NCBI GenBank assembly: GCA_963716585.1
Contig: CAVQTN010000002.1
Location: forward strand, 28,480-92,479
Direction: 5' to 3'
Length of the DNA stretch: 64,000 nucleotides
From: an uncultured Chloroflexia bacterium
GTDB lineage: Bacteria; Chloroflexota; Limnocylindria; QHBO01
The position numbers and the translations under genes were made by a program. Position 1 is the stretch's first letter. Every line of letters starts with the position of its first letter. Positions 4,721-60,169 of this stretch are shown here, one piece after another. Under the pieces are notes generated by a model, which saw only the letters and a program-made list of their open reading frames with translations, made no database searches and was not told the DNA's origin.

Positions 4721-6937
4721 CTAACGGATGAACAACGGCGCGAGCACCAGGGTGATCGTCGCCAGCAGCTTGACGAGCACGTGCAACGACGGACCGGCGG
4801 TGTCCTTGAACGGGTCACCCACCGTGTCGCCGACGACCGCCGCCGCGTGGGCCTCGGTCTTCTTGCCGAGCACGTTGCCGTCGTCATCGGTCAAATGCCC
4901 GGACTCGATGTACTTCTTGGCGTTGTCCCAGGCCCCGCCGCCGTTGTTGAGCACGGTGGCCAGCATGACGCCGGCGATGGTGCCCACCATCAGCAGGCCC
5001 GCCACGGCCTCGTGGCCGAGCAGCAGGCCCACGATGATCGGCGTTGCGACCGCCACGAGCCCGGGGGCGATCATCTGGCGCAGGGCGGCGCGAGTGGTGA
5101 TGTCGACCACGCGCGCGTAGTCGGGCCGCTGCGTGTAGTCCATGATCCCGGGCATCTCGCGAAACTGGCGGCGCACCTCGACGATGATCGTCTGCGCGGT
5201 GGTGCCCACCGCTCGGATGGCGAGGCTGGAGAAGAAGTAGACCAGCATGGCGCCGATCAACGCCGCCACGAAGACCGACACGTTCGACAGGTCGACAGAG
5301 GTGAGCAGCGTGCCCGCCGCGCGTGTCCCGGCGTCGATCTGGCGCTGCAGGATCAGGTTGACCTTGTCGATGTAGGCGCTGAACAGGAGGAAGGCGGCGA
5401 GGCTGGCCGAGGCGATGGCGTAGCCCTTGGTGAGCGCCTTGGTCGTGTTGCCGACCGCGTCCAGCCGATCGGTGATCTCGCGTGCGCTTGCTTCCGACTT
5501 GCTGAACTCGGCGATCCCGCCGGCGTTGTCGGTGATTGGCCCGAAGGTGTCCATGGCCAGGATGTACGCGGTGGTCATCAGCATGCCCATGGTCGCCACG
5601 GCGGTGCCGAAGATGCCGCCGACGTCCTTGCCGGCGGCGTTGGTCAGGCCGGCCTGCGAACCGAGCCAGTGGCTGGCGAGCAGGGCGACGCCGATCGCGA
5701 TGGCGGTCATCAGGGTCGTCTCGTAGCCGACCGCCGTACCCGAGATGATGTTGGTGGCCGCGCCGGTCTTGCTGGCCTCGGCGATCTCCTTGACCGGGCG
5801 CCACCCGCCGGCGGTGTAGTACTGGGTGATGTACACGAAGGCGACGCTGGTGATGAGGCCGACCACTCCGGCGCCGAAGAACCAGATCCAGGTCGGAATC
5901 CCGTTGGCGCCGAGATGGCCGCCGGTGTTCATCATCACCCAGGTGGTCAGCGCCAGCCCGGCAACCGACAGGATGGTCGTCACCCAGTACCCGCGGTTCA
6001 GGATGTTCATCGGGTCTTCGTCCTCGCGGCCGTTCACGAAGAACATGGCGATGATCGTCGCCAACAGGCCGAAGGCCCGCACCACCAACGGGAAGAAGAT
6101 CCATGCCTCGGGGTGCGGCCAGCCCGACGCGCTGGCGATGGCGTACACCGCAACGCCCAGGATCATGGCCCCGATGTTCTCCGCGGCGGTCGACTCGAAC
6201 AGGTCGGCGCCACGGCCGGCGCAATCGCCGACGTTGTCACCGACCAGGTCCGCGACGACGCCGGCGTTGCGCGGGTCATCCTCGGGGATGCCGGCCTCCA
6301 CCTTGCCGACCAGGTCGGAGCCGACGTCGGCCGCCTTGGTGTAGATCCCGCCGCCCAGCTGTGCGAACAGGGCGACGAAGCTGGCGCCGAAGCCGAAGCC
6401 GACGATCAGGAAGGGGGCCTGGTTCGGATGCGTGAAGCCGCCGTACGCGGCGAAGATGCCCCACACACCGAGCAGCGACAGGGCGACGACGAGGAAGCCA
6501 GAGACCGCGCCACCGCGCATCGCGATCTGCACGGCACCGACCAGGCTGTGGCGTGCCGCCGCAGCCGTGCGCAGGTTGGAGCGCACGCTGATGAACATGC
6601 CGATGATGCCCGAGGCCATGGAGCACGCCGCCCCGACGAGGAACGCGACGCCGGTGCGGATCCCGAGCTCGGTGCCGAACACATCGGTGTCCGCCACCTG
6701 CTTGCCCTCGACCACAGCGATCACCAGCCCGATGAGCAGCGCCCCTGCGATGGCGAGGATGCCGATCGTCTGATACTGCCGGCGGATAAAGGCGACCGCA
6801 CCCTCGAAGATGATGGCGGCAATCTCCTGCATCGCTTCCGTCCCGGTGTCAGCGTGGAGGACGCCCCAGGCGAGGTACAGCGCGAAGAGGATCGATGCGA
6901 CCCCGGCGACAGGGATCACCCAGGTGATGAGCTCCAT
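4721..6937 (-). CDS. hppA: membrane-bound H+-translocating pyrophosphatase, K+-independent type
   Basis: 738 aa from MELITWVIPVAG at 6937, with GGAGGA RBS just upstream. Multi-TM, with GNTTKA motif (Lys at the K+-independence position) and DVGADLVGKVE and DNVGDN motifs. The upstream 31 codons of the six-frame ORF are likely spurious. Confidence 0.9.
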   Translation of the reverse strand: MELITWVIPVAGVASILFALYLAWGVLHADTGTEAMQEIAAIIFEGAVAFIRRQYQTIGILAIAGALLIGLVIAVVEGKQVADTDVFGTELGIRTGVAFLVGAACSMASGIIGMFISVRSNLRTAAAARHSLVGAVQIAMRGGAVSGFLVVALSLLGVWGIFAAYGGFTHPNQAPFLIVGFGFGASFVALFAQLGGGIYTKAADVGSDLVGKVEAGIPEDDPRNAGVVADLVGDNVGDCAGRGADLFESTAAENIGAMILGVAVYAIASASGWPHPEAWIFFPLVVRAFGLLATIIAMFFVNGREDEDPMNILNRGYWVTTILSVAGLALTTWVMMNTGGHLGANGIPTWIWFFGAGVVGLITSVAFVYITQYYTAGGWRPVKEIAEASKTGAATNIISGTAVGYETTLMTAIAIGVALLASHWLGSQAGLTNAAGKDVGGIFGTAVATMGMLMTTAYILAMDTFGPITDNAGGIAEFSKSEASAREITDRLDAVGNTTKALTKGYAIASASLAAFLLFSAYIDKVNLILQRQIDAGTRAAGTLLTSVDLSNVSVFVAALIGAMLVYFFSSLAIRAVGTTAQTIIVEVRRQFREMPGIMDYTQRPDYARVVDITTRAALRQMIAPGLVAVATPIIVGLLLGHEAVAGLLMVGTIAGVMLATVLNNGGGAWDNAKKYIESGHLTDDDGNVLGKKTEAHAAAVVGDTVGDPFKDTAGPSLHVLVKLLATITLVLAPLFIR

Positions 6938-7100
6938 TGGTCCTCCGAAAGGGCAGCTGGCCACGGTCCGCCATTCCGGCGACCGGTCTGAACACACGGA
7001 AATCGCCGGCGATCGGGCCGCGAGCCGCATCCGCCAGCGAAGCGGCCGAATGGTAGCCCGCCGGGAGGCGCCGGGTCAACTTGCGCGGGTGGCCGTCGGC

Positions 7101-9188
7101 TCACGGGACCCAGCGCGGCTGCCAGCCATCATCTCCGATGCGACGGCTCCTTCCGCTGGACAGGTCGAACAGCCAGATACCACGCGCCGCCGGTGAGCCG
7201 CTGCGGCCGCCGGCGAGCAGCAGTCGATCCGGATCCGGGGTGAAGCGGACGGCGCTCAGCTGCATCGCGACAAGCAGGCTGCGGCCGGGACCGCCATCCG
7301 GGCGGGTCAGCCACGCGGCGCCGGTGCGGCCGCCGGGATCCAGCAACAGGTAGGCCATTCGCCCGTCGCCGTCGACCGTCGGCCGCGCGATCCCGTTCGG
7401 AAGGAGGCTGTCCACGGTCGCTTCGGCGCCGCGGTCGAGGCGAACGATCACCAGCGACCCGAGCAGCGAGTTGGCCAGGTCGCCGCTCTCGAGCTCGAGC
7501 GGCGCGACGGCCGCTCCGGGGCGCCGTGCGGGCGCGGACCCGGCACCCGACAGGCCGTTCAGCAGCAGGCCGCTCGAGTCGGGCAGCCAGACCGGCGGCT
7601 CGACCGAGCGGAAGGCTGCGGTGGTCAGACGCGCGGCGGGCAGCTCCAGCACGCCAACTCGGCCAGCCTCGTCGACAAAGGCAAGGGCGTGGCCGTCCGG
7701 GGAGTAGCGCGGCGCACGAAGCAGCGAGGCGGCCGGCTGGGCGGCGCTGGGCGATGGGGTCGCGCTGCCGGTCAGCTCGTCGGGCAGTTCAAGCTGGCGC
7801 GCGTCGCCACCGCCCGCCTCGCGGAGCCAGAGGCCCAGCCCGCTGCCGCTCGCCGCGTCGGCGCGGCCGAAGGCGATCTGCGCCCCGTTTGGTGAGTAGG
7901 TGGGATCAAACTCCAGGACGCCATCCTCGGTGAGGATGCGTCGCGATGTGCCGTCGGCGTGCTGCTCGACGAGGCGTGCACCATCGGCCACCACGAATGA
8001 GCGACCGTCGGGGGCGACGGCGTAATCCACGATCGGCGACAGCTCCGCGGAGAGCTGCCGCTGCCCGGTTCCGTCCGGATTCATGGCCCACAGGTTGGCA
8101 ACGCCCGATCGATCGGAGAGGTAGACCACCTGGTTGCCCAGGGTGGCCATCGGCGCGCCGGTCAGGAACGTCCAGGTCACCGACGCCGACAGACGAGAGC
8201 CGTCGGCACCGCGCAGGCCCGGGACGAGCGTCACCCGAAACGTCGTGTTGGGCGGCAGCGGGCCGGAGGGCTGAAACTCCAGCAGGCGGGCGTCGCCGTC
8301 CTGCAGGCCGGCCGCGCCCGGTGCGGCGACGACCGCCAGGGTGCCGGGCACGGCGGGGTCGAGCTCGAACTGGTCGTTGCCGAGGCTGCCCGGATCGAGG
8401 GCGCGGTCGAAGACGATGACGATCGGCGAGGTGACCGCGATGCCGTCGCTGGCATCGGCCGGGACGAGGCTGCGCACCGCCAGGCCGGGTGCCGTGGTCG
8501 AGAAGACGAGGCTGAAGGGCTGCTCAAGCGACGAGCCTCCGAGGTCGCGCGCACCCTGGCCGATGGTCACGGCGTAGCGCTGGTCGGCCGCCAGCGGCGC
8601 GCGTGGCTCGATCGTCAGCTGCTCGCCGCTCCAGCGCAGGTCGTAACCGACGGCCGGCGAAAGCTCGAGCGCGGTTGCCACCGAGCGCGTGTCCATGAGC
8701 GTCGAGAACGTGATGCGGATCGAGGCGTCGAGCGGCACGTCGGTCGCGTTGGCCGCGGGATCGCTGTCCACAACCTGCGGCTCGCCCACCGTCGTGAAGC
8801 CAAAGGCCGCCGAGGCCTGCTGCATCTCGTTGCCCGCGCTGTCGCGAACGCCGGGCTCGATGTGCGCCGTGAAGTCGGTCTTCGGCGGCAGCGGCTGCAG
8901 CGGGGTGAAGGTCAGGGTGCTGTCAGTCCAGCTGTAGGAGCCGTCGACGGCAGGCTCGATGCGGAAGGCGGCCTCCGCCTCCGGCTTGTCGACCGGCTCC
9001 GAGAAATGGATCTCGAGGCTGGTGCTGGTCAGCGCGACGGCGGTGTCCCCGGAGAGATGCTGACTCAGTGAGAAGCTGGTGACGCCCGGCGGACGCGAGT
9101 CGACGGTGCTGGCGTAGTACAGGATCCCGGCGAGCACGGCCGCGCCGACGACGAAGACCGCGAAGCTCCGCAGCAGCACACGCCGCAC
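7101..9188 (-). CDS. secreted or membrane-anchored protein with tandem Ig-like (Big/SbsA-type) domains and a C-terminal TolB-like beta-propeller (PD40 repeats)
   Basis: 695 aa with an N-terminal TM/signal anchor. Four or more repeats of about 90 aa with SPxxG/xDVPLDxxIxIxF patterns typical of bacterial Ig-like domains. The C-terminal half has PDG..xAF.. repeats typical of PD40/TolB propellers. The start overlaps the rpoN stop by 4 bp. Confidence 0.65.
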   Translation of the reverse strand: MRRVLLRSFAVFVVGAAVLAGILYYASTVDSRPPGVTSFSLSQHLSGDTAVALTSTSLEIHFSEPVDKPEAEAAFRIEPAVDGSYSWTDSTLTFTPLQPLPPKTDFTAHIEPGVRDSAGNEMQQASAAFGFTTVGEPQVVDSDPAANATDVPLDASIRITFSTLMDTRSVATALELSPAVGYDLRWSGEQLTIEPRAPLAADQRYAVTIGQGARDLGGSSLEQPFSLVFSTTAPGLAVRSLVPADASDGIAVTSPIVIVFDRALDPGSLGNDQFELDPAVPGTLAVVAAPGAAGLQDGDARLLEFQPSGPLPPNTTFRVTLVPGLRGADGSRLSASVTWTFLTGAPMATLGNQVVYLSDRSGVANLWAMNPDGTGQRQLSAELSPIVDYAVAPDGRSFVVADGARLVEQHADGTSRRILTEDGVLEFDPTYSPNGAQIAFGRADAASGSGLGLWLREAGGGDARQLELPDELTGSATPSPSAAQPAASLLRAPRYSPDGHALAFVDEAGRVGVLELPAARLTTAAFRSVEPPVWLPDSSGLLLNGLSGAGSAPARRPGAAVAPLELESGDLANSLLGSLVIVRLDRGAEATVDSLLPNGIARPTVDGDGRMAYLLLDPGGRTGAAWLTRPDGGPGRSLLVAMQLSAVRFTPDPDRLLLAGGRSGSPAARGIWLFDLSSGRSRRIGDDGWQPRWVP

Positions 9189-9191
9189 GGC

Positions 9192-10607
9192 CTAGCTGTG
9201 GCGCAGCCGAGCGGGCAGGATCTGCAGCTCGTCGCGGTACTTCGCGACGGTCCGTCGGGCGAGAACAACCCCGTCAGCCAGGAGCAGCTCGGCGATTTCC
9301 TGGTCCGAGTACGGATTCGCCTCGTCCTCGGCGTCGATCATCCTGCGGATCTGGTCCTTGATCCCCAGCGAGGCGGTGAAGAAGTGGCTGAAGGGCACGA
9401 CCTCGCCGGATGGGATCATCACGTACTTGTCGGCGGTCGCCCGGCTGACCGTGGACTCGTGCATGCCGATCACCTCCCCAACCTCGGCCCGGGTCAGGGA
9501 CACCAGGTGCTGGACGCCGTGTAACAGGTAGTCGCGCTGGCGATCGCACAGGCATTCGGCTATGCGCTGCATGGTCGCTCGCCGGCGGTTGATGTTGTCG
9601 ATGAAGAACTTGGCGCGGCCGACGTACTCTCGCACGTGCTGCTTCTCGTCCTCGGTCGCCTCCGCGCTGCGCAGCTGTGACGACAGGCTCGAATAGATGG
9701 GCGTCACACGCAGGCTGAAGCGCCGCGACTCGACGACCTCGACGAGGAGCTCACCGTCGACGACCCGGATGAGCACGTCCGGCCGGATGATGGTCCGGAG
9801 GCCACCCCCGCTCACGGCGGCGGTGAACGCCGAGGTCGGGTACGGGTGGAGGTTGGACTTCACGAATTCCCATGTCTCGACCACCGACTGGCTCTCGACC
9901 CCGATTCGCTGGCCGATCTCACGGAACTTGCGCTCGCCCAGCTGCTGCAGGTGGTCGCGGACCACGACCTCGGCGATCGGGGGCACAGACACCTCGTCGT
10001 CCATCTCGCGCAGATAGGCGATCTGCGCCAGCAGGCTCTCGGTGATGCTTCGTGAGCCGATGCCGATTGGCTCGAGGCCGCGCATCGCGGCGAGCACCTG
10101 CTCCACCTCCTCGAGTGTCGCACCGGTGGCCGCCGCAATCGCCTCGTCGCTCTCGGTCAGGAAGCCGCTGCCGTCCAGCGCTCCGATGACGTAGTCGGCC
10201 ACGCGGTGGAGCGCGGTCGGCAACAGGGCGTACAGGTTCCAGGTCAGGTGCTCGTCGAGCGTGAACTCGGCTTCGGCGCGCGCGATCAGGTCGAGCTCAT
10301 CGGCTTCGTCGCGCAGACGCTGCTGAGAATCGGCGGGCAGCTCGTCGACGGCGGAATCGGCCGGGTCGCCCTCGCTGGCCTTGCGAGGCATGCACTCGGT
10401 GCAGTAGTTGCCGCTGATCGGCGAGCCGCAGATTGGGCAGCTCGCCAGCTCCTCCATCTCGAGGGCGGGGTTCTCTTCGAGCTCCTGGCTGATCGCCTCC
10501 TGCAGCTCGACGGAGCTCATCTGCAGGATGTAGTTGGCGGCGATCTGCTTGGGCGTGACCTTGAGGTGCATCGCCGGCTGCAGCTGCTGCTTGAGATCGA
10601 GCGACAT
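9192..10607 (-). CDS. rpoN: RNA polymerase sigma-54 factor
   Basis: 471 aa. Region I MSLDLKQQLQ...LQMSSVELQEAISQELEENPALE, core-binding region, and C-terminal RpoN box ARRTVAKYRDEL. It also contains a C-x2-C-x9-C-x2-C insertion in region II (see findings). Confidence 0.9.
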   Translation of the reverse strand: MSLDLKQQLQPAMHLKVTPKQIAANYILQMSSVELQEAISQELEENPALEMEELASCPICGSPISGNYCTECMPRKASEGDPADSAVDELPADSQQRLRDEADELDLIARAEAEFTLDEHLTWNLYALLPTALHRVADYVIGALDGSGFLTESDEAIAAATGATLEEVEQVLAAMRGLEPIGIGSRSITESLLAQIAYLREMDDEVSVPPIAEVVVRDHLQQLGERKFREIGQRIGVESQSVVETWEFVKSNLHPYPTSAFTAAVSGGGLRTIIRPDVLIRVVDGELLVEVVESRRFSLRVTPIYSSLSSQLRSAEATEDEKQHVREYVGRAKFFIDNINRRRATMQRIAECLCDRQRDYLLHGVQHLVSLTRAEVGEVIGMHESTVSRATADKYVMIPSGEVVPFSHFFTASLGIKDQIRRMIDAEDEANPYSDQEIAELLLADGVVLARRTVAKYRDELQILPARLRHS

Positions 10608-10673
10608 GGCTCCTCAGGTCTGGAACGAAACGGCCCTGACGGGCCGGTTGCCCGATTATAGGCTGGCGACCGC

Positions 10674-11336
10674 TCAGTCCCCGCGAGGGACCGAGAGCGA
10701 TCCCGGAGCGTTGATGCGTCGGACGCCCGGCAGCCCGGCACCGTAGCTCAGCAGGCTGTAGCCCGCGGGGTCCTGCGCCACGCGCCGCCGGTAGTCACGC
10801 ATCGGCCATGCCAGCAGTGCTGCGATCCGCAGGCGGTTGACGTGGTTGTGCGCGACCACGATGGCGCAACGCGCCCGGTCATCGGCGAGCCAGGCCTCGA
10901 CCGCGTGGAAGACCGGGAAGCTGCGTCGCGCCACGTCCTCGCCGCTCTCGCCCCCGGGACAGCGCGTGTGGTACGGATCGGCCACCCAGGCGCGGCGCAG
11001 CTCGGGGTCGCGGGCTCGGCATTCATCGGCCGTCAGACCGTCCCAGGCACCGTAGTCGAGCTCCAGGAGATCCGGCTCGACCTCGACCGACTCCGGGGGA
11101 AGCCCCAGCGCACGCCCCACCGGAGCGATCGTCTGGCGGCAGCGCAGCGCCGGGCTGCTGAACAGCCGGATCTCGTCGTGCGGCAGCTCGGTCAGCTCTG
11201 CGACGAGCGTTCGCGCCAGGTCGTCCGCGACGGTCACGCCCTCGGCGGCCAGGGGCGGGTCATCCGAGCGGCCGAGGTTGCGACCGCCCGCGCTCGCCGC
11301 GGTGATCGAGTGCCGAACCAGCACCAGGCTGCCCAT
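10674..11336 (-). CDS. histidine phosphatase family protein (phosphoglycerate mutase-like)
   Basis: 220 aa. N-terminal LVRHSIT (RHG catalytic motif) and the H of AHNHV; fold family PGAM/SixA-like. Confidence 0.75.
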   Translation of the reverse strand: MGSLVLVRHSITAASAGGRNLGRSDDPPLAAEGVTVADDLARTLVAELTELPHDEIRLFSSPALRCRQTIAPVGRALGLPPESVEVEPDLLELDYGAWDGLTADECRARDPELRRAWVADPYHTRCPGGESGEDVARRSFPVFHAVEAWLADDRARCAIVVAHNHVNRLRIAALLAWPMRDYRRRVAQDPAGYSLLSYGAGLPGVRRINAPGSLSVPRGD

Positions 11337-13437: not shown

Positions 13438-14765
13438 CCGGCGAGCGCCCGCTCGAAGCGGCGCGCCGACTTGAAGGGTCCGAGCACCGCCAGGCGCGCG
13501 TGCTGCGGGGCAAGGAACCGCCGTGCCACGCGCAGCATGTCGTCGGGCGTCACCGACTCGAGGCGCTCGACGACCTCCTCGACGGTCATGATCCGGGGCA
13601 GCAGGCTCTCGCCGCTGCCGAGCCACGAGGCGACCGCACCCGTCTCCTCCATGCGCAGCTCCAGGCGGCCACGGGTGTAGGCCAGCGCGCGATCGAGCTC
13701 GGCGCCGCTGATCGGCTCCTGGACGACGCGCTCCAGCTGGTCTCTTATGGCGACCACGACGCGCTGCGCCTGGTCGGGATCGAAGCCGGCATGCACCCCG
13801 AACGTGCCGCAATCCGCATAGGTCGACGCGAAGGTCGAGACGTCGTAGGTCAGCGAGCGTCGCTCCCGCAGCTCCAGGAAGAGGCGGCTGCTCATCCCAT
13901 CGCCGAGCACGGCACCAAGCAGGTCGAGCGCCCAACGGTCGGGGTCATCGCGCGAGCTGCCGGGCATGCCCAGGCACAGGTTGCCCTGCGACAGGCGGCG
14001 ATGCACCACCCGTACCCCACCCGCCTGGCCAAGCTCGGGAGCGTGCAGCCCGGGCAGGGGGATGGGTGAGCCGTCGCCAGCCGCCGCATCTGCCAGCCAG
14101 TCGCGCGTCTGGTCGTCCCACCAGCCGGCCGCGGCGCGCAGCACCTCCTCGTGATCGATCGCGCCGGCGACCGCCAGCACGAGATGTGGGGGTCGATACC
14201 AGCGCCGCCAGTGCGCTGCCGTCGAGGCACGCGTTGCGCGCCGCACGCTGCGCGGCGTCCCGGCGATCTCGCGGCCCAGTGGGTGACCGCCGAACAGCAG
14301 TTCATCGAAGAGGGTGAACACATGGTCGCTGGGCGAGTCGACGTACATGCGGATCTCGTCGATGATCACCGGCTTCTCGGCAACGAGGTCGGACCTGCGC
14401 AGCAGCGGACGCAGGGCGAGCTCGGCGACAACCTCCAGGCCGCGCGCCGCCTGGGCGCGGGGCACCCGCGAGGAGTAGACGGTCAGCTCGCGATCGGTCG
14501 ACGCGTTGACGCTGCCGCCGCTGCCCTCGATGACCTCGGACAGCCCGCCCGCCTCCGGGTAGCCGCGCGTGCCCTTGAAGACGAGATGCTCGAGCAGGTG
14601 GGACAGGCCTGCCTGCTCCTCGTTCTCATGGCGGGAGCCGACGCCCACGAACAGAGCGACCGACACCGAACGTGCGGTCGGCATCGACTGGGTCAGCACG
14701 CGCATCCCGTTGGGAAGGACGGTGCGCTCGAAGGCCTGTCCGACGGCCGCCAGGCCGAGGCTCAC
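13434..14765 (-). CDS. M16 family zinc peptidase (pitrilysin-like, inverted zincin HxxEH)
   Basis: 443 aa. HLLEHLVFKGT (HxxEH) and a downstream Glu; two-domain M16 architecture. Confidence 0.85.
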   Translation of the reverse strand: MSLGLAAVGQAFERTVLPNGMRVLTQSMPTARSVSVALFVGVGSRHENEEQAGLSHLLEHLVFKGTRGYPEAGGLSEVIEGSGGSVNASTDRELTVYSSRVPRAQAARGLEVVAELALRPLLRRSDLVAEKPVIIDEIRMYVDSPSDHVFTLFDELLFGGHPLGREIAGTPRSVRRATRASTAAHWRRWYRPPHLVLAVAGAIDHEEVLRAAAGWWDDQTRDWLADAAAGDGSPIPLPGLHAPELGQAGGVRVVHRRLSQGNLCLGMPGSSRDDPDRWALDLLGAVLGDGMSSRLFLELRERRSLTYDVSTFASTYADCGTFGVHAGFDPDQAQRVVVAIRDQLERVVQEPISGAELDRALAYTRGRLELRMEETGAVASWLGSGESLLPRIMTVEEVVERLESVTPDDMLRVARRFLAPQHARLAVLGPFKSARRFERALAG

Positions 14766-15247
14766 CTCGGCGCGTCCTCGTCCTCATCGGTCGCATCCGA
14801 GGAGTCCGACGACATGCTGAGCTCCATCTGGATGAAGCGCAGGTCCCGCGCGAGCTCCTCCGCGTTGCGTGGCAGGGGGCGCCCGTTGGGCTGTAGCTCC
14901 TCGTCCTCGCCAGTCCGCGGCGCGCTGGCGGCGAACTCGATCTGCACCCGCTCGCTGCCGATCACCAGCGTGTAGACCAGCAGCTGCTCCGAGGTCGTGT
15001 CGAACTGCAGGTAGTCGAACGAGTCGAGGTTGAGGCAGATGGCCAGCGGCGTGAAGTAGCTCGCGACCTCCGGATGGTCGACCACCAGCCGCTCGACCCA
15101 GCCCGTTCCGCTGCTCGCTGCCTGGTTGCCGCGGTAGTAGGTGTACGTCACGGTCTGCTTGAGCAGCGGACGCAGGATGTTGTAGATGTCGCTGCGATTG
15201 GTGACGACGCCGGTGTTGATGTAGAGCTTGGCGCGCGCCTCGGACAT
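14762..15247 (-). CDS. hypothetical protein with acidic Ser/Asp/Glu-rich C-terminal tail, first gene of the M16 peptidase operon
   Basis: 161 aa. Protein-like composition (Tyr/Ile/Asn-rich N-terminal half, unlike GC-shadow ORFs). 4-bp overlap with the peptidase start. No family recognised. Confidence 0.55.
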   Translation of the reverse strand: MSEARAKLYINTGVVTNRSDIYNILRPLLKQTVTYTYYRGNQAASSGTGWVERLVVDHPEVASYFTPLAICLNLDSFDYLQFDTTSEQLLVYTLVIGSERVQIEFAASAPRTGEDEELQPNGRPLPRNAEELARDLRFIQMELSMSSDSSDATDEDEDAPR

Positions 15248-15345
15248 CAGGGCACTCTCAGCGTTGGGGGGCGATGATCGTCGGCGAGTCTAGCACCAGA
15301 CCGATGCCGTCTGGAGCGCGCCGGCCTGCTGCTAGGATAGCCCGC

Positions 15346-33944: not shown

Positions 33945-34608
33945 ATGGCTCGCGGCCCCGTATCCTTGCGGCCTCGCATGTCCGACCACCTCGACCTCGC
34001 TGACTATCGCCGGCGCGTCTTCGCCCTGTACGAGCAGATGCGGCGCGACGGCCGCGCCGACCCGCTGCGCCTCGTGAACTTCCGCTCCGCCAAGGACCGG
34101 CTGCTCGCTGAGCACCCGCAGTCCCCCATCGCCGCCGATGAGCGCCGCGACTTCCGCGGCCTGGCCTACTGGCGCCACGACCCCGCACTGGCGCTGTCCG
34201 CTCGCCTCGAGCCCGATGCCGATGCGCCGCCGCTCGACCTGCCCCTTTCCGGCGAAGGTGCGGCCATCCCGTTCGCGCGCATCGGCTGGGTCAGCTTCGA
34301 GGTCGGCGGCGTCGCGTGCCGCCTGTCGGTCTACTGGCTGAACGACTACGCCGGCGGCATCTTCATCCCGTTCCGCGACGGCACCAGCGGCGCGCGAGAC
34401 GTACGGCGGCGGCCGCTACCTGTGGGACTCGTCCAAGGGCGCCGACCTCGGCGCCGACGGTGACCGGCTGACGCTCGACTTCAACTACGCCTACCACCCG
34501 TCGTGCACCTACGACCCGCGCTGGAGCTGCCCGCTGGCGCCGCAGGAGAACTGGCTGAGCGCCCCGGTCGCCGCCGGCGAGCGACTGCTCGGCGTCGGCG
34601 AATCATGA
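33945..34608 (+). pseudogene. DUF1684 family protein, interrupted by a +1 frameshift near 34390
   Basis: The N-terminal 150 aa are in one frame. The C-terminal ETYGGGRYLWDSS...DFNYAYHPSCTYDPRWSCPLAPQENWL (DUF1684 hallmark) is in the +1 frame. An extra C in AGCGGCGCGCGAG explains the shift. Confidence 0.7.
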
Positions 34609-35051
34609 GCAGCCGGACCGTCAGCCACTGCATCAAGTGCGGACGCGAGGTCGGGCCTGAGGAGACCATCTGCGCGGTCTGCAATCGGGCAGGCATGGCG
34701 ACGCCATCCGCCAGCCAGTACCACGGCACCATGGCGGTGGGCATCGTGGCGGGCGTGGTCCTGATGGCAGTCGCCGCGAGCTGGCTCCTCAGCGGCGTGG
34801 GACCGTACCGCGGCAGCGTGCTCGGCACGCAGGCGGCCCCGGGTGGGCTGCAGGCAACGGTGTCGGTGATGAACCAGGGCACCAAGCCCGGCCGCGCCAA
34901 GTGCCAGCTCATCGCCTACGACGCGCAGGGACGTTCGCTGCAGTCGCGTTCGGTCCTTTCGCCGCAGGTTCCGGGCGGCGAATCGGTGACGTTCGACGAG
35001 GGGATCCCCGCCGTCGAGCAGGCGGCCACCGTCACCGTCGACTGCCAGTAG
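34605..35051 (+). CDS. membrane protein with N-terminal zinc-ribbon (CxxC...CxxC) and extracytoplasmic domain
   Basis: 148 aa. ATG overlaps the preceding stop (ATGA). CIKCGREV...CAVCNRAG, then a TM helix MAVGIVAGVVLMAVAASWLL, then a beta-rich domain with two Cys. Confidence 0.6.
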   Translation: MSSRTVSHCIKCGREVGPEETICAVCNRAGMATPSASQYHGTMAVGIVAGVVLMAVAASWLLSGVGPYRGSVLGTQAAPGGLQATVSVMNQGTKPGRAKCQLIAYDAQGRSLQSRSVLSPQVPGGESVTFDEGIPAVEQAATVTVDCQ

Positions 35052-35596: not shown

Positions 35597-35764
35597 GTTG
35601 TCTCTCCAGTGGAGTCATCGGGCGGCGAAGAGGACGTCGGGCAACGACGTCGGAATGGGCACAGCCACCCGGGATCTGCCTTGGGTCAGGCGCAAGAAGG
35701 GTGCCAGCCGCACGCCAGGCGGTCAAATCGGGAGGTCGGCGGTGGGGGGCGCTATCCTGCCGCC

Positions 35765-47997: not shown

Positions 47998-49275
47998 GTG
48001 ACCCTGCGCCTGCACGACGCTCGCCGCGGCGAAGTCGTCCCCTTCGAACCTATCGATGGCGAGCCAATCGGCCTGTACGTGTGCGGCGTGACGCCCTACG
48101 ACACCGGCCACCTGGGTCATGCGTTCACCTACGTCAGCTTCGACGTTCTGCATCGGTACCTCGAGTACCTCGGCCATGACGTTCAATACGTGCAGAACCT
48201 GACCGACGTCGACGACGACCTGCTGCGCAAGGCACGCGAGCTCGGCGAGGACTACATCGAGCTCGGCAACCGCCACGTCACGACCTTTCTGACCGAGATG
48301 GCGGCGCTCAACTGGCTGCCGCCGGATCGCCTCACGCGTGCCACCGAGCACATCCCCGAGATGCTGGCGCTGATCGGGCTGCTGCTCGACCGTGGCCATG
48401 CCTACCTCGCCGAGGGGCACGCCTACTTCAGCGTCAACAGCGACCCGCATTACGGCGAGCTGTCCAAGCTGACAGCGGTGGAGATGCTGCCCATCGCCAA
48501 CGAGCGCGGGAACGTGCCGGACATGCCCGGCAAGCGCGACCCGCTCGACTTCGTGCTGTGGCAGCCATCGGCAGCCGACGAGCCGTCGTGGCCGTCCCCC
48601 TGGGGAGCGGGACGTCCCGGCTGGCATATCGAGTGTTCGGCCATGAGCATGACCTACCTCGGCGAGCGCTTCGAGATCCATGGCGGTGGCCTTGATCTGA
48701 TCTTCCCGCATCACGAGTCGGAGATCGCGCAGAGCGAGGGCGCCACTGGCCAGCGCCCCTTCGTCAGCTACTGGATGCACACCGGCATGCTCAGCCACGA
48801 GGGCGACAAGATGAGCAAGTCACTGGGCAACCTCGTGCTCGTGCGCGATCTGCTGGCTTCCTATCCGGGCGACGCGATCCGGCACTACCTCATCTCGCGC
48901 CATTACCGTGCCGAGGTGCACTACGACCACGCCGCCCTCGAGGCGTCGGTGCTGCAGGCCGGTCGCCTTCGCTTCGCCTGCCGCGTGGCCGAAGATCTCG
49001 AGCCACTCGCGCCGGCGCTGGCCATCCCCGCGGAGTTGCATCCGATCGTCGCCGAACACCGCACCCGCTTCCTGGCGGCCATGGACGACGACCTCGACAC
49101 GCCGGCCGCGCTCGTCGAGCTGCACGCGCTCGCCGGCCTCTGCCAGCGCACCGAGGAACGCGACGTGATCACCCAGGCGGGCTGGATGGTGCGCGAGCTC
49201 GGCGCTCGCATCCTTGGACTGCGGCTGGCGACACCGGCTGCGCGGCTGAAGGCGGACGAGGCGGTCCCGGCGTGA
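47998..49275 (+). CDS. cysteine ligase of the CysRS family; short form with MshC-like features (Cys-tRNA synthetase or mycothiol ligase)
   Basis: 425 aa. HIGH (TGHLGHAFTY), zinc-ligand Cys, KMSKS (GDKMSKSLGN), and the PSWPSPWGAGRPGWHIECSAM block. The C-terminus is about 140 aa after KMSKS, shorter than canonical CysRS and similar in length to MshC. GTG start at 47998 is 7 nt after a TAGAAT hexamer. Confidence 0.75.
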   Translation: MTLRLHDARRGEVVPFEPIDGEPIGLYVCGVTPYDTGHLGHAFTYVSFDVLHRYLEYLGHDVQYVQNLTDVDDDLLRKARELGEDYIELGNRHVTTFLTEMAALNWLPPDRLTRATEHIPEMLALIGLLLDRGHAYLAEGHAYFSVNSDPHYGELSKLTAVEMLPIANERGNVPDMPGKRDPLDFVLWQPSAADEPSWPSPWGAGRPGWHIECSAMSMTYLGERFEIHGGGLDLIFPHHESEIAQSEGATGQRPFVSYWMHTGMLSHEGDKMSKSLGNLVLVRDLLASYPGDAIRHYLISRHYRAEVHYDHAALEASVLQAGRLRFACRVAEDLEPLAPALAIPAELHPIVAEHRTRFLAAMDDDLDTPAALVELHALAGLCQRTEERDVITQAGWMVRELGARILGLRLATPAARLKADEAVPA

Positions 49276-49823
49276 CGCGCGAGGCGGCGCCCTTGCCCGA
49301 GAAGGACGAAAGCGTCCCGATCAGCGTCAGGCTGGGGGCCGTCGTTCCACCCGAGGACCCCGAGGACTGGACGCGGCCGCTGACCTGGGTAGCGGCACTT
49401 GGCATGCTTGCGCCGCCGATCGTTGCGCTGCTCTGGTTCTGGATCGCTCCGCCACGCACCGGCGCCGGGCAGCTTCCCGCCACGACGCTGCTCGCCGCGG
49501 CGGTCGCCCTCGGCGGCGTGGTCACCGGGGCCACCCAGATCGGCGCGGTGCGCGCCTTCGCGGGGACGCTCGGCGCCGCCCTGTTCGGTGCGCTGGCCAC
49601 GGTCATCGTGGGTGCTGCGATGGCCGGGGAGCGCCAGGTCGGGGCCGCTTCGCCGAGCCTGGCCGTCGCGTTCGGCGGGGCGGCGGCTGGGCTGGCGGGA
49701 GCCCTGGCGGCCTCGACCATCGCACCGTCGCTCGCACCGGCCGCGTCGCGCCTGCGACGTGGACTGGCACCGGCCGGCATCGGGCTGATCGTCGCCGTCG
49801 TCGTCGCGCGCCTGCTAGCGTAG
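49272..49823 (+). CDS. hypothetical polytopic membrane protein
   Basis: 183 aa. GTG start overlaps the upstream stop (GTGA). Four or five hydrophobic helices rich in Ala/Gly. Confidence 0.5.
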   Translation: MTREAAPLPEKDESVPISVRLGAVVPPEDPEDWTRPLTWVAALGMLAPPIVALLWFWIAPPRTGAGQLPATTLLAAAVALGGVVTGATQIGAVRAFAGTLGAALFGALATVIVGAAMAGERQVGAASPSLAVAFGGAAAGLAGALAASTIAPSLAPAASRLRRGLAPAGIGLIVAVVVARLLA

Positions 49824-49828
49824 CGCCT

Positions 49829-51046
49829 ATGCAATCGACCGCCGCGAGCCGTCCGTTGCGAGCCTCGACCGGCCTCGCGGCGATCGGCCGGCTGCGCGGC
49901 TGGGCGCTCGTGCCGATCCTGCTGCCGGTGCTGGCCGGGGTCGTGTATTTCTTCACCGGCCCGATGGCCTCCGGCAGCGACGTCTACGTCCCTCTCGCGG
50001 ACGCCCTGCTCCACGGACGCTTCACGATCGAGGATCGCTCCTGGTTGGAGCTGGTTCCCAGCGCATCCGGCTCGCTCGTCCCCTTCCCGCCGGCCCCGGC
50101 CCTGCTGCTCATGCCGATCGTCGCGGTCATGGGTGCGCAGCCCTGGTACGCGGAGCTGCCGTCGAACGTGATGACCTCGATCATCGGCGGGGCGAATGTC
50201 GCCCTCGCCTGGTCGATGCTGTCGGCGTGGGGCGTATCGTTCAAGACGAGGCTGTGGCTGGTGGTCGCCTTCGCCTTCACCATCCACTGGTGGGTGGCGG
50301 GTTCCGCCGGCACTCACCTGTACGCGCAGGTGTGCGGCGTCTTCTTCACGCTCATTGCCCTCAACCTGGCGATTCGCCGGAAATGGCCGTGGGTCGCCGG
50401 CCTGATGATCGGTCTGGCCGCAGCCAGCCGGCTGCCGATGGGCCTCGCGCTGCCGCTGCTCCTCGGCTTCTACGGCTACCGGCCGCGCTGGGCGCATGCC
50501 GAGCTGCTGCTCGGGCTGGCAATCCCCGCCATGCTGGTGGCGGCCTACAACATCGCGCGCTTCGGCTCACCCACCGACTTCGGCTATGCGCGCATCGTCT
50601 CGAGCAATGGACTGGTGACGGACGAGCCCTGGTTCCGCGACGGGATCGTCTCGCTCAGCTACATTCCGCGCAACCTGTACGCCATCTTCTTCCAGAGCTT
50701 CGACTGGGTCGACCAGGTTCCCTTCCTGCGGCCCTCGTGGACCGGCGCCGCGATCACCTTCACCGCGCCGTTCCTGTTCTGGGTCGTCGCCGCGCGCGGT
50801 CGCGTGGCGATCGGTGTGGCCGCGGCCGTGGTGCTCGTTCTGCTGCCTGACGTCATGCACGGCTCATGGGGCTTCGCGCAGTTCGGCTATCGGTTCATGC
50901 TCGACGCCATGCCGCTGCTGCTGCTGCTGCTGGGCCTGGTGTGGCGTGATCGCATCTCACTGCCCGCACGCGCCGCGATCGTCTTCTCGGTGGCGATGCA
51001 TGCCTACGCCTTCTTCGTCATCAACGTTCTGAACTTCGTCGCGTAG
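49829..51046 (+). CDS. integral membrane glycosyltransferase-like protein (GT-C fold; DUF2029/PMT-like)
   Basis: 405 aa, about 10 TM helices, periplasmic loops with conserved Asp/Glu near the N-terminus (DVYVPLADALLHG). Architecture is like polyprenyl-phosphate-sugar-dependent glycosyltransferases. Confidence 0.45.
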   Translation: MQSTAASRPLRASTGLAAIGRLRGWALVPILLPVLAGVVYFFTGPMASGSDVYVPLADALLHGRFTIEDRSWLELVPSASGSLVPFPPAPALLLMPIVAVMGAQPWYAELPSNVMTSIIGGANVALAWSMLSAWGVSFKTRLWLVVAFAFTIHWWVAGSAGTHLYAQVCGVFFTLIALNLAIRRKWPWVAGLMIGLAAASRLPMGLALPLLLGFYGYRPRWAHAELLLGLAIPAMLVAAYNIARFGSPTDFGYARIVSSNGLVTDEPWFRDGIVSLSYIPRNLYAIFFQSFDWVDQVPFLRPSWTGAAITFTAPFLFWVVAARGRVAIGVAAAVVLVLLPDVMHGSWGFAQFGYRFMLDAMPLLLLLLGLVWRDRISLPARAAIVFSVAMHAYAFFVINVLNFVA

Positions 51047-51057
51047 CCGCCCATCGC

Positions 51058-51606
51058 TCAGGCGGCGGGCGACTTTCGGCTCAGGCGCTTGGCCAGCCCA
51101 CCGACGGTCAATGCCAGGCCGAGGGCGATGATGCCCACCGCGCCGACCACCCGGAACGCCTCGCCGCCGAAGGCGGTGGCGAAGGCAAGGTAGGCGACCA
51201 CCGCGCCGGCGGCGATCCCCGAGCCGATCCACTTGAAGGCCGGGGCGTCCGCGATCCATCCGGCGGCGTACATGCCGAAGCCCAGGCTGAACGGGATGCT
51301 GGTCCACAGGTAGCTCCACGACATCCATCGGTCGGCGAGGCTGGTGTACAGCAGCACGGCGCCGACGCCGGCGAAGATCACACCCGGAATGACCATCCCC
51401 GCGCGAAGCCTACGGTGCTGGCCACCGATGAGCGCCGGGACGAGGAAGAATAGTGACAGTCCGATGACGAGCGCCGGCCACCAGGCGAGCACGTCGTCAC
51501 GGATGCCGAGCCCGCCGAACCATCGGCTGAGCGGGTCGCTGGCCAGCACCAGCACGCCGATAACGAGCAGCATCAGCCCGATCAGCAGCTCGATGGTGCG
51601 GCTCAT
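51058..51606 (-). CDS. hypothetical polytopic membrane protein
   Basis: Probable start MSRTIELLIGLMLLVIG. Five or six TM helices. The six-frame ORF extends to 51666. Confidence 0.5.
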   Translation of the reverse strand: MSRTIELLIGLMLLVIGVLVLASDPLSRWFGGLGIRDDVLAWWPALVIGLSLFFLVPALIGGQHRRLRAGMVIPGVIFAGVGAVLLYTSLADRWMSWSYLWTSIPFSLGFGMYAAGWIADAPAFKWIGSGIAAGAVVAYLAFATAFGGEAFRVVGAVGIIALGLALTVGGLAKRLSRKSPAA

Positions 51607-51688
51607 GCGGGCGAGTATACCGATGAGCCCGCTGCGGTCCGAAGGAGCGGTTTCGGCCGCAGGCAAATGGCTGGGCCGGCCGGCCGAG

Positions 51689-52336
51689 CTACGGCGAGGA
51701 CCGAATGGTCAACCCCACGGCGAACGTGGTCGGGCCCGTATCGCTGAATGCGCTCCTCGACTGGTCGAGGACGACATAGTCGCCGGCCGCGAGGCTGCCC
51801 AGGTCGAAGTAATCCACTGAGCCGTTGAGGCTGACGCCCAGCAGCCGATCGTAGCTACCCGCAACCGTGCCATCGACGTTCCCGACGAAGACGTCGTCCA
51901 GGTCGCCCATGAGGTAGGTGCGCGCCCCGGCCGGCAGGCTGACGACCGGCACGTCGGGCCAATGGCTGGCCGCCGGGTCGAAGGCGTGGGTGCCCTCGAG
52001 CCGAGCGTGGGGGGCCGGCCGGCAGCTCAGCGACGCGCCGTCCTCGCAGACCACCCACGAGCCCAGGCGCAGGTTGGCGTAGTAGGCCTGCTGCAGCACG
52101 TCGGCCACGTGCGGTTGCTGGATCAGGCCGCCGTCACCTCGCACCGACGGAGGTTCGGCGCTGGCATTCGCCGCCGAGCTTGGCCCGATGATCACGGTCC
52201 GCACCCGATCTGGCGCCGATCCCAGCTGGAAGCCGATCAGGAACGCGATGAGCAGTCCGGCGGATGCCCCGATGCCAAGCAGCAGCGGAGTCCCCGGACC
52301 CGACAGCGTCGGCCGTCCACTGCTCGATTCGATCAC
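51689..52336 (-). CDS. hypothetical membrane-anchored extracytoplasmic protein
   Basis: 215 aa. N-terminal TM LLLGIGASAGLLIAFLIGF, then a beta-rich domain with two Cys. Confidence 0.5.
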   Translation of the reverse strand: MIESSSGRPTLSGPGTPLLLGIGASAGLLIAFLIGFQLGSAPDRVRTVIIGPSSAANASAEPPSVRGDGGLIQQPHVADVLQQAYYANLRLGSWVVCEDGASLSCRPAPHARLEGTHAFDPAASHWPDVPVVSLPAGARTYLMGDLDDVFVGNVDGTVAGSYDRLLGVSLNGSVDYFDLGSLAAGDYVVLDQSRSAFSDTGPTTFAVGLTIRSSP

Positions 52337-52378
52337 GACGACACTCTATGCCGGCCGGGCCCGCGAGACCGACGGCCG

Positions 52379-55647: not shown

Positions 55648-56463
55648 TTACGCGTGCACCGCGCCAGAGAGGCGCGAAACCACCTCGCCGACCGCGGGCG
55701 CGCCGCCGTCACGCATCGCGGCAACCAGCGCCGAGCCCACCACGATGCCGTCGGCCACTCCCCGGAGCTCGCGCGCCTGATCGGGAGTCGAGATGCCGAA
55801 GCCGGCGGCAACCGGCAGACGTCCGGCGGCTGCCACGGCGACGCGCCGCAGCAACGCCGCGGCTCCCTCGGCCAGCCGCTCCCGCGCGCCCGTCACGCCG
55901 AGCAGCGGAACGACGTACAGGAAGCCGGTCGAGGCCTCGATCGCCGCCTCCATGCGCGGCGCAGCCGTGTTCGGTGCGACGAGGAAGGTGAGCGCCAGGC
56001 CACGGTCGGCCGCCGAGCGCTCGAAGCCCGGCATCTCGCCGGCAGGCAGGTCCGGGACGATGAGGCCGTCGCAGCCGGCCTCGGCCAGCCTTCGGAGGGC
56101 GGTCTCGGCGCCCACCGCGAGCAGCGGGTTGAGGTAGGTCATCGCCAGGATGGGCTGCTCCAGGCCCCGCGAACGGAGCGCTGCCACCATCCGCAACGCC
56201 GAGTCGAACCCGCCACCGTGCTCGAGCGCCACGCGGCCCGCCCCGGCGATCACCGGGCCGTCGGCCAGCGGGTCGCTGAATGGGACGCCCACCTCCAGGA
56301 TGTCCGCTCCGCAGCGCAGCGCAGCCTCGCCCGCATCGGTCCCGGCCTCATCGGTCGGAAAGCCGGCCATGACGTACGCGACAAAGGCTGATCGGCCGGC
56401 ATCGGTCGCCGACGCAAACGCGGCGCGCACCCGCGCGGCGCCATCGGGAGCGGACGAGCTCAT
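55648..56463 (-). CDS. trpA: tryptophan synthase alpha chain
   Basis: 271 aa. [17 protein letters not shown] and [10 protein letters not shown] motifs. The start overlaps the upstream trpCFB stop. Confidence 0.92.
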
Positions 56464-59132: not shown

Positions 59133-60169
59133 GGGCGGATCGCCGCTGCGGCGGTGACCACCTCGGCGGCCCTGCCCGAATCGATGGAGGTCGCGGCCAT
59201 CTCGACGCCTTCGCCGACGTCGTTGGCGCGCCCGGCAGCGAACAGCGCGGCGCCGGCGTTGAGCAGGGTGACGTCGCGGGCCGGACCCGGCTCGCCGCCG
59301 AGCACCGACATCGCGATCGCCGCATTGAGCTGTGCATCGCCACCGGCCAGGACAAGGGCCGGCGCGCGGCGCAGACCCAGCGTTGCCGCATCGATCTCGA
59401 GCTCCGCGATCACCCGGCCCTCGATGAGCAGTGCCCGGTTCGGCCCGTTGAGTGTCAGCTCGTCGAGGCCCTCTGGCGAGTGGATGACCAGTGCCCGTTC
59501 GGTCGGCAGGCGCGCCAAGGCCCCGGCAATGAGCGGCAGCAGACGCTCATCGGCCACGCCCAGGAGCTGCCGACGTACCCCGGCCGGCGACGAGATCGGT
59601 CCGAGCAGGTTGAAGACGGTGCGCATCGGCAGCTCGCGGCGAATCGGCATGGCGTGTTTCAGCGCCGGATGGTAGGAGGGCGCGAACATGAAGCCGAAGC
59701 ACGTCTCGCGAATGGACCGCGCGACCGCCTCGGGCCCGGGATCGAGGGCGATGCCGAGTGCCTCGACGAGGTCTGCGGATCCGCATCGGCTGGTGATCGC
59801 GCGGTTCCCGTGCTTGGCCACCGGCACGCCGGCGCCGGCCACAACGAAGGCGGCCAGCGTCGAGATGTTGAACGTGCCACTCCCGTCTGCGCCGGTGCCA
59901 CACAGGTCCACCGCGTCATCGGGCGCCTCGACCTTGACGGCGCGGGCGCGCATCACCCGGGCGAATGCCGCCAGCTCCTCCGGTGTCTCGCCGCGCACGC
60001 GCAGCATGGCCAGCAGCGCGGCGACCTGCGTCGCCGGCGCCCTGCCGTCCATCAGCTCTTCCATGGCGGCCTCGGCCAGCGGCGCAGGCATCGCGGCGCC
60101 GTTGGCGACCAGCTCCACCGCGGCGGCCACCGCGGGCCGATGCTCCTGCGTCGCTTGCGTGCCTGCCAT
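59129..60169 (-). CDS. trpD: anthranilate phosphoribosyltransferase
   Basis: 346 aa. [39 protein letters not shown]-binding region. First gene of the trp cluster, with a GAGGA SD. Confidence 0.92.

Follow-up and report, generated by a model that had tools for sequence, protein, structure and literature searches.

A probable metal-binding four-cysteine knuckle in region II of sigma-54 from a Limnocylindria bacterium and its Chloroflexota relatives

The rpoN gene and its four-cysteine knuckle

The DNA analysed here, hereafter called the window, is a stretch of 64,000 nucleotides (nt) from an uncultured Chloroflexia bacterium assigned to the Limnocylindria (positions 28,480 to 92,479 of contig CAVQTN010000002.1 in assembly GCA_963716585.1). 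Its G+C content is approximately 70% throughout, and it contains a complete gene for sigma-54, rpoN, on the minus strand, whose 471-amino acid (aa) product carries a knuckle of four cysteines in region II (Table 1). The AID, CBD, and DBD domains of sigma-54 were all detected in the product by Pfam. It scored 299.5 bits against TIGR02395, the NCBIfam equivalog model of rpoN, thereby passing the cut-off of 277.35 bits, and it matched the solved sigma-54 chains in the PDB over residues 5–469 with a best E value of 2.8e-47. The canonical region I and RpoN box described in the original prediction, which had been made from the letters of this stretch alone, are both present, and the protein is a genuine sigma-54. 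Its closest relatives carry the names Candidatus Limnocylindria or Chloroflexi/Chloroflexota.

The sequence CPICGSPISGNYCTEC follows region I, at the position of region II.1 (RII.1) of the enterobacterial sigma-54, and holds its four cysteines (C57, C60, C69, and C72; the Cys4 motif) in the spacing Cx2C-x8-Cx2C. A Cys4 motif at this place had been recognized in the original prediction, although the spacer between the two cysteine pairs had been given as nine residues instead of eight. The motif had furthermore been regarded as an insertion special to this gene. This term is misleading because the protein is similar in length to that of E. coli (471 versus 477 aa) and because the knuckle matches the beginning of E. 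coli region II in the HMMER alignment, with no added length; the arrangement is instead the normal one in a large clade, as described in the next section. The remainder of region II is an acidic linker, containing 12 aspartate or glutamate residues versus 5 lysine or arginine residues and predicted to be disordered, and its terminal acidic sequence, DEADELD, aligns with a D-E-x-F-D-P block that is conserved among relatives. Region II as a whole varies among sigma-54 proteins and does not strictly define the family. A further cysteine pair, C-L-C (C352 and C354; 9546–9554 in the window), is found in region III, outside the conserved columns of the 67-sequence alignment described below.

Table 1. 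Features of the rpoN region in the window (upper rows) and of related loci (last three rows). Related loci are designated by L and a number. pLDDT, predicted local distance difference test score.
Feature	Position	Strand	Description and basis
rpoN	9192..10607	-	Stop codon TAG at 9192-9194; Pfam, TIGR02395, and PDB matches
Region I (activator-interacting domain)	10455..10592	-	Residues 6-51, ending in ENPALE; PF00309 (AID), 3.9e-12, profile positions 1-46 of 46
Cys4 knuckle	10392..10439	-	Residues 57-72; invariant cysteines in alignment, fixed register, pLDDT 82-91
Remainder of region II (acidic linker)	10272..10391	-	Residues 73-112; composition, pLDDT, alignment of representatives
Core-binding domain	9693..10280	-	Residues 110-305; PF04963 (CBD), 4.2e-35
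DNA-binding domain with helix-turn-helix	9201..9638	-	Residues 324-469; PF04552 (DBD), 1.8e-38
RpoN box	9234..9260	-	ARRTVAKYR, residues 450-458; six-frame motif search
Spacer between rpoN stop and next GTG	9189..9191	-	GCC, 3 nt; direct reading
Gene for 695-aa membrane-anchored or exported protein	7101..9188	-	N-terminal hydrophobic segment, three Big_5, C-terminal PD40-type beta-propeller
TATAAT hexamer	10655..10660	-	Perfect, 48 nt 5' of rpoN ATG; candidate sigma-70-type -10 without a good -35; direct reading
GC-rich hairpin	10631..10646	-	CGGCCC-GTCA-GGGCCG (6 bp), between TATAAT and Shine-Dalgarno; terminator-like scan
Shine-Dalgarno of rpoN	10610..10615	-	GAGGAG; GAGG conserved in L082 and L083
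Histidine-phosphatase superfamily gene	10674..11336	-	66 nt before rpoN; PF00300, 6.3e-38; position kept in L001, L082, and L083
Membrane H+-pyrophosphatase gene	4721..7030	-	Downstream; PF03030, 6.7e-244; sigma-70-like promoter match at 7050-7079
Cys4-bearing sampled loci			L003, Chloroflexia metagenome-assembled genome (MAG); L005, L011, L024, L025, and L028, Anaerolineae MAGs; L002, contig labelled Udaeobacter
Sigma-54 promoter sites 5' of rpoN, Anaerolineae	L005 5878-5893; L011 4471-4486; L025 5871-5886; L024 5875-5890; L028 5849-5864		Scan for TGGCAC-N5-TTGCA
Second sites just after enhancer-binding protein gene, four Anaerolineae loci	L005 10520-10535; L024 10496-10511; L025 10480-10495; L028 10467-10482		Scan for TGGCAC-N5-TTGCA

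Conservation, predicted structure, and range of the knuckle

All four cysteines are retained in each of the 120 closest homologues (≥74% identity) and, together with the 8-residue spacer, in all 120 relatives at 42–48% identity that were collected by a profile search with a 67-sequence alignment (A1; 29–75% identity to the sigma-54 of the window); the named sequences among the latter are all from Chloroflexota. In A1, only 15 columns of the whole protein are invariant, and four of these are the knuckle cysteines, while the loop residues between the cysteines vary and only one glycine and one hydrophobic position of the knuckle are conserved in addition. The motif is also invariant in a second alignment (A2), and the two sets of 120 relatives together keep all cysteines in 240 of 240 sequences. 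Its register relative to region I is equally strict, with the first cysteine located exactly six residues past the terminal NPALE in 339 of the 355 motif-bearing sequences. The first knuckle often reads CPxCG, giving the module pattern CPxCG-x7-CxxC.

When the cysteines of this segment were counted in 214 sigma-54 sequences, four or five were found in 126 sequences and none in 85, with one to three being found in only 3 sequences. A metal site would be expected to show such an all-or-none distribution, and the variability of the loop residues suggests that selection acts on the fold and not on a particular surface for interaction. The metal binding put forward in the original prediction is thus supported as very probable by the invariant cysteines. 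A lack of conservation in close relatives had been named there as an observation that would speak against the proposal, and the alignment revealed the opposite.

An AlphaFold2 model of the full-length protein, built with the 67-sequence alignment, reached a mean pLDDT of 88.8, with values of 86 for residues 51–60 and 82 for residues 61–70. In this model, region I forms two helices (residues 19–29 and 32–45; pLDDT 84–98), which are followed by a short strand (49–53), bridges at residues 56, 63, 65, and 68, and a helix (72–78); pLDDT is below 50 at residues 79–99 and 110–112. A separate model of residues 40–82 gave pLDDT values of 87–91 over the knuckle, and beta bridges at the knuckles appear in both models. 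Structure prediction of region II, which had been suggested together with the original prediction, accordingly yields a confidently modelled knuckle (pLDDT 82–91) and a largely disordered remaining linker. Most likely, the knuckle chelates a single metal ion, probably that of zinc, in a minimal zinc-ribbon-like fold, as judged from the conserved cysteines and the predicted structure. By comparison with the PDB, its cysteines are absent from every solved sigma-54.

The range of the Cys4 type was assessed by scanning the genomes of representative species for the RpoN box. The 80 loci obtained among the matches listed constitute a quasi-random phylum sample rather than a census and, judging by record titles, include no Firmicutes or Thermotogota; 78 of them have a usable N-terminus. 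Within this sample, the motif is present in 7 of the 78 sigma-54 genes, all of Chloroflexota type (Table 1), and in none of the 71 others, which include genes from Pseudomonadota, Myxococcota, Verrucomicrobiota, Acidobacteriota, Nitrospirota, and Planctomycetota. Among the 150 nearest sigma-54 clusters recovered from a search of 1.84 billion representatives of 50%-identity clusters, most, at 30–45% identity, carry CxxC-x(6–11)-CxxC at the same place, and the names on distant clusters, few of the 30 representatives considered having a taxon name, add Ktedonobacterales and one cluster labelled Armatimonadota, on which the range beyond Chloroflexota rests. In a neighbour-joining tree of region III only, which is crude and was computed from a representative set biased towards the query, a single split sets apart 143 sequences, among which are all 126 of the Cys4 type. 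The other 17 of these 143 lack the cysteines and are scattered as about a dozen small groups, which look like repeated loss.

By these comparisons, the Cys4 knuckle belongs to the usual build of a large clade of sigma-54 proteins, which comprises Limnocylindria, Ktedonobacterales, Chloroflexia, Anaerolineae, and at least one MAG labelled Armatimonadota. No description of a cysteine or zinc site in sigma-54 region II was found in the searchable PMC and bioRxiv literature, with subscription-only literature lying outside the search, and within these bounds the clade-wide architecture appears to be previously undescribed. The original prediction had considered that the motif might belong to a known, common sigma-54 subtype; the subtype is common across the clade but is not a described one.

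Two records in these comparisons carry unexpected labels. L002 (DATLPP010000109.1), a 4.3-kb contig with 65% G+C that is assigned to Candidatus Udaeobacter (Verrucomicrobiota), contains a Limnocylindria-like Cys4 rpoN (52% identity) and an H+-pyrophosphatase (H+-PPase) gene, and protein P0059, labelled Methylomirabilota, is 76% identical to the sigma-54 of the window. Both look like products of misbinning, which is probable for L002.

Enhancer-dependent circuitry of relatives and gene neighbourhood

Four Anaerolineae loci have a gene for a PAS histidine kinase after the Cys4-type rpoN and then one for a response regulator of 389–400 aa with REC, Sigma54_activat, and AAA-lid domains, i.e. a bacterial enhancer-binding protein (bEBP), which in all four loci is without a C-terminal helix-turn-helix (HTH). 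In another Chloroflexota group (L084 and L085; 44–45% identity), rpoN is preceded by a gene for an NtrC-type bEBP with HTH_8 and by a 114-aa open reading frame (ORF). These loci were scanned for the sigma-54 promoter TGGCAC-N5-TTGCA with GG and GC held fixed; the expected number of perfect matches to the 11 specified bases is, by our calculation, approximately 0.008 per locus. L084 (7466–7481) and L085 (7467–7482) each contain a zero-mismatch site, TGGCACGGATATTGCA, inside the 3' end of the NtrC-type bEBP gene. The site points to the 114-aa ORF, which has no Pfam match, then to rpoN, and then to a cluster of acyl-CoA dehydrogenase, thiolase, and methylmalonyl-CoA mutase genes. All five Anaerolineae loci likewise have a site immediately 5' of rpoN (0, 0, 1, 2, and 2 mismatches; Table 1), and rpoN appears to be autoregulated in those lineages. 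Four of the Anaerolineae loci contain a second site, directly past the end of the bEBP gene and facing an ORF of approximately 110–130 aa, whose printed N-terminus looks hydrophobic in L024 and L028. The bEBP neighbours and conserved perfect promoters suggest that the Cys4-type sigma-54 is embedded in ordinary enhancer-dependent circuitry, and the genes and promoters adjoining rpoN in these related loci support the view that it works as a classical enhancer-dependent factor in the clade.

In the window, rpoN is followed by a gene for a 695-aa protein. The 3' end of rpoN reads CAC AGC TAG (TAG at 9194–9192), and the GCC spacer separates it from a GTG start codon at 9188, which is backed by the N-termini of orthologues (MRRVLLR in L083; MRAVVLR, with a GGGAGG ribosome site, in L082). 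Contrary to the original prediction, the two genes therefore neither overlap by 4 bp nor are translationally coupled; the gap is 3 nt in the window versus 5 and 19 nt in relatives. Such a gap leaves no room for a terminator, which makes co-transcription plausible, as had been proposed, although the linkage is conserved only within Limnocylindria. rpoN is thus probably co-transcribed with a downstream, Limnocylindria-specific envelope-protein gene. The two genes also share a reading frame in the window, parted by the TAG and one codon (9188–9194). Read-through or fusion was ruled out because the orthologous pair in L083 lies in different frames with its own start, and the shared frame is probably a coincidence.

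The 695-aa protein contains three Big_5 stretches (1.5e-47) and PD40 (2.4e-07) in Pfam searches, matches designed PD40-type propellers in the PDB, and has no peptidase domain. Of the earlier description as an Ig-like protein with a TolB-like PD40 propeller, the Ig-like domains (as Big_5) and the PD40 repeats stand. Together with an N-terminal hydrophobic anchor, these are features that it shares with PD40-containing envelope proteins and Big_5 surface proteins, whereas the likeness to TolB holds at the repeat level only: against TIGR02800 (TolB), the protein scores 47.2 bits, over residues 351–447 only, versus a cut-off of 343, and it is for this reason not a TolB orthologue. The same Big_5/PD40 gene follows rpoN in L082 and L083. 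In L002, H+-PPase comes directly after rpoN, and more distant lineages have other neighbours. A general functional module of sigma-54 and Big_5/PD40 proteins was ruled out, the adjacency being gone at ≤52% identity, and, judged from gene order, the adjacency is a local feature outside the sigma-54 mechanism. Francke et al. (PMC3162934) argued for a general relation of sigma-54 to the cell exterior, with which an adjacent envelope gene agrees, though not specifically.

Upstream of rpoN, the hexamer resembling a -10 element is conserved, reading TATAAT in L083 and TATACT in L082 in spite of the 70% G+C content, which suggests that rpoN has its own sigma-70-type promoter. The hairpin between this hexamer and the Shine-Dalgarno sequence could be a structure of the 5' untranslated region or a weak terminator of the histidine-phosphatase gene. 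The gene order is kept in Limnocylindria relatives (75 and 85% identity), namely NDK, signal peptidase (opposite strand), histidine phosphatase, rpoN, Big_5/PD40, H+-PPase, BacA, and GreA.

The rpoN-hpf-ptsN operon is a proteobacterial habit. The absence of the hpf/ptsN neighbourhood noted in the original prediction was borne out within the window, where Pfam searches of approximately 50 ORFs detected no hpf, ptsN, or lptB, but it is uninformative because the operon is proteobacterial. The window shares only rpoN with the proteobacterial order lptB-rpoN-hpf-ptsN-rapZ-npr and contains none of the partner genes, rpoN being placed instead between the histidine-phosphatase gene and the Big_5/PD40, H+-PPase, BacA, and GreA genes. 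The other genes of the window are also housekeeping ones, including those for seryl-, lysyl-, and cysteinyl-tRNA synthetases, in addition to genes for pantothenate/CoA, fatty-acid oxidation, and trp functions. On the minus strand, one stop-free frame of 1028 codons (56463–59546) contains IGPS (trpC), PRAI (trpF), and PALP (trpB-like) domains and could represent a three-domain fusion or adjacent genes in the same frame. Five ORFs with coding-like G+C at third codon positions have no Pfam match at E ≤ 1e-5: 49250–51043 (+), 51061–51708 (-), 51692–52345 (-), 34464–35048 (+), and 14765–15289 (-).

Comparison with known systems and possible roles of the knuckle

Metal ions bound by cysteines are known in several factors of transcription initiation, such as ZAS anti-sigma factors (RsrA), CorE-type extracytoplasmic function (ECF) sigma factors with a cysteine-rich domain, and DksA with its zinc finger, and activity can depend on the bound metal. 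These factors differ from the present protein in belonging to the sigma-70/ECF world or acting through the secondary channel and in having HxxxCxxC motifs or C-terminal cysteine-rich extensions. Rubredoxin has a fold of approximately 45–54 residues with two distant CxxCG knuckles and an aromatic core, in contrast to the module of the window, which has 16 residues and a spacer of 8. The canonical sigma-54 of Klebsiella, E. coli, and Aquifex (PDB 5BYH, 5NWT, 7QV9, and 5UI5) has the same region I, core-binding domain, ELH-HTH, RpoN box, and overall length as the protein of the window, and Cys4-type relatives likewise pair with bEBPs and TGGCAC-N5-TTGCA promoters; the two differ in the first part of region II, which is acidic and largely unstructured in the canonical proteins.

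According to reviews, region II of sigma-54 is acidic and without predicted structure. In the Klebsiella holoenzyme, RII.1 sits in the downstream DNA channel like region 1.1 of sigma-70 (PMC5095919), and the remainder of region II threads the template path as well as the RNA exit channel (PMC5095919, PMC10786286). Region 1.1, a folded N-terminal element in the downstream DNA channel of which RII.1 is the positional analogue (PMC5095919), thus resembles the knuckle in placement, but it is a helical acidic domain without metal or homology to the knuckle, which is placed there by alignment only. TFIIB and archaeal TFB offer another likeness, in that a Cys4 B-ribbon is followed by a flexible B-reader/B-linker that enters the cleft and the RNA exit path, and RII.3 has been compared to the B-linker (PMC5095919). 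This is an analogy only, with no fold match, and the site of the B-ribbon on the polymerase corresponds to that of the sigma-54 core-binding domain and not to that of RII.1 (PMC5095919). FlgZ of Helicobacter pylori (HP0958; DUF164) carries a CxxC...CxxC zinc ribbon that is tied to sigma-54 and needed for RpoN stability (PMC3372290), but FlgZ is a coiled-coil protein in its own right that acts in trans, with a spacing of 18–26 versus 8 residues and no sequence similarity to the knuckle.

On balance, we favour the reading that the protein of the window is an ordinary sigma-54 of the clade plan, in which the knuckle is a metal-chelating ribbon that replaces RII.1 in an otherwise classical enhancer-dependent factor. 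The 16-residue knuckle, directly after region I, would bind one structural metal ion, probably zinc, and would take the place of RII.1, being followed by the disordered acidic linker and then by the acidic block of RII.3 that leads into the core-binding domain. It may act as a folded plug or hinge in place of an acidic coil, compact, rigid, and anchored where region I ends, and would help to keep the holoenzyme from opening before region I is remodelled by an AAA+ activator.

Several observations weigh against this reading. The role as plug or hinge depends on a position deduced by alignment to a distant homologue, in which the N-terminal part of region II is itself not seen in several cryo-EM structures (PMC10786286), and the metal site is a predicted one. 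A Foldseek search of the PDB with the isolated 43-residue model gave no significant match (best E value of 2.2, the segment being too small for Foldseek statistics); the resulting list is rich in zinc modules, none of them significant, which at 43 residues is not evidence. No curated Pfam or NCBIfam model covers the knuckle, whether in the full protein or in isolated segments. In Pfam, no zinc-ribbon profile exceeds its threshold, although the sub-threshold matches are all to zinc-ribbon families (DZR, 21.9 bits for one relative with a cut-off of 27.3; Zn_ribbon_3, 10.9 bits for the window sequence). The scattered cysteine-less groups inside the clade indicate that the module is dispensable in some lineages. 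Moreover, as stated in the original prediction, the 64-kb window contains no bEBP, an absence borne out by a search for GAFTGA/Walker motifs, by a hidden Markov model built from the four Anaerolineae bEBPs and run on six-frame ORFs, and by the Pfam searches of approximately 50 ORFs. The -24/-12 sites of the window are at chance level, with 4 observed at ≤1 mismatch versus 3.84 expected, and the sole exact site (35692–35706) lies inside an ORF. Because the window has neither a bEBP nor an above-chance site, enhancer dependence in this organism is suggested only by its relatives and by the conserved region I.

Among the alternatives, a fortuitous cysteine pattern without metal or function would agree with region II being the least conserved part of sigma-54 (PMC10786286) and with the existence of several clade lineages without cysteines. 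It is hardly credible and is effectively refuted by conservation: against an accident in a variable linker stand the cysteines forming four of the 15 invariant columns, the all-or-none count, the fixed register, and the confident AlphaFold2 model. A bolder proposal, namely that the knuckle is active in the sigma-54 switch, either as a metal-clamped stop for the AAA+ pulling of region I or as a thiol/metal switch, seems unlikely to us, though not negligibly so. The specific alternatives are each improbable, and we rank the mechanical stop highest, the redox or metal switch next, and a FlgZ-like stabilizer after these. The pore of a bEBP hexamer captures region I by its N-terminus, and the hexamer has been proposed to translocate and unfold it. 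As a mechanical stop, a metal-clamped knuckle six residues past region I would resist unfolding by the bEBP, set the end of pulling, and displace regions I and II. This accords with structures in which region I enters the PspF pore, for which the number of unfolded residues and the termination of the reaction have been called open (PMC9770992), as well as with the strict spacing between region I and the knuckle and with the variable loop, which suggests that the fold and not a binding surface is under selection. However, the contacts of PspF are residue-specific and not those of processive tracking (PMC9770992), sigma-54 of all other sampled phyla works without such a stop, and some members of the clade have lost the knuckle; the idea is, moreover, purely inferential.

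A sensor switch, in which oxidation, nitrosylation, or the loss or gain of zinc unfolds the knuckle and alters sigma-54 activity, or in which the site is a rubredoxin-like Fe(Cys)4 centre, is marginally less probable than the mechanical stop. Cys4 zinc sites can serve as redox switches in other proteins of transcription and proteostasis, as in the DksA zinc finger and RsrA, and the CPxCG motif, often seen in the first knuckle, is common to rubredoxins and zinc ribbons; the site also adjoins the regulatory region I. The zinc-ribbon chaperone Ruc (Rv0991c) is reportedly another example (PMC7448276). Sequence does not, however, tell a sensing site from a structural one, and the remaining observations do not favour sensing: there is no histidine in or near the motif, so that it does not match the ZAS motif H-x3-C-x2-C; the module has 16–20 residues versus approximately 45–54 for the rubredoxin fold, matches to which are not significant; conservation is alike in aerobic soil or freshwater lineages and in anaerobic Anaerolineae; and the loci examined contain no conserved redox-related genes beside rpoN. 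Lower still in the ranking stands a docking or protection module, i.e. a built-in counterpart of FlgZ, through which the knuckle would contact a protein or nucleic acid and stabilize sigma-54, aid core binding, or recruit a partner. The zinc-ribbon cysteines of FlgZ are required for RpoN accumulation, and a link has been drawn between FlgZ-type proteins and organisms with bEBPs devoid of a DNA-binding domain (PMC3372290), a situation paralleled by the HTH-less bEBP of the four Anaerolineae loci. The other Chloroflexota group, however, pairs the same type of sigma factor with an HTH_8-bearing bEBP. Beyond the cysteines, one glycine, and one hydrophobic position, the surface of the knuckle is also unconserved, as would not be expected of a specific conserved interface, and the knuckle resembles DUF164 neither in sequence nor in fold.

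The Cys4 type is not a new system but is of interest to sigma-54 specialists, the gene neighbourhood being of local interest; NPALE-x6-CxxC-x8-CxxC provides a simple sequence marker for this sigma-54 lineage. If the knuckle were active in the switch, a whole phylum would use a mechanistically distinct sigma-54 with a TFIIB-like ribbon and a cleft-reaching linker. A stop would bear on how the remodelling reaction terminates (PMC9770992), and a redox- or metal-responsive site would make this, to our knowledge, the first sigma-54 to sense a signal directly. The Cys4 clade represents a natural variant with which region II.1 may be probed as channel plug, hinge, or activator stop. The mechanism of sigma-54 is known almost entirely from enterobacterial and Aquifex proteins, in which region II is described as acidic, poorly conserved, and largely dispensable, and a Cys4 sigma-54 may possibly offer a better-ordered sample for structural work.

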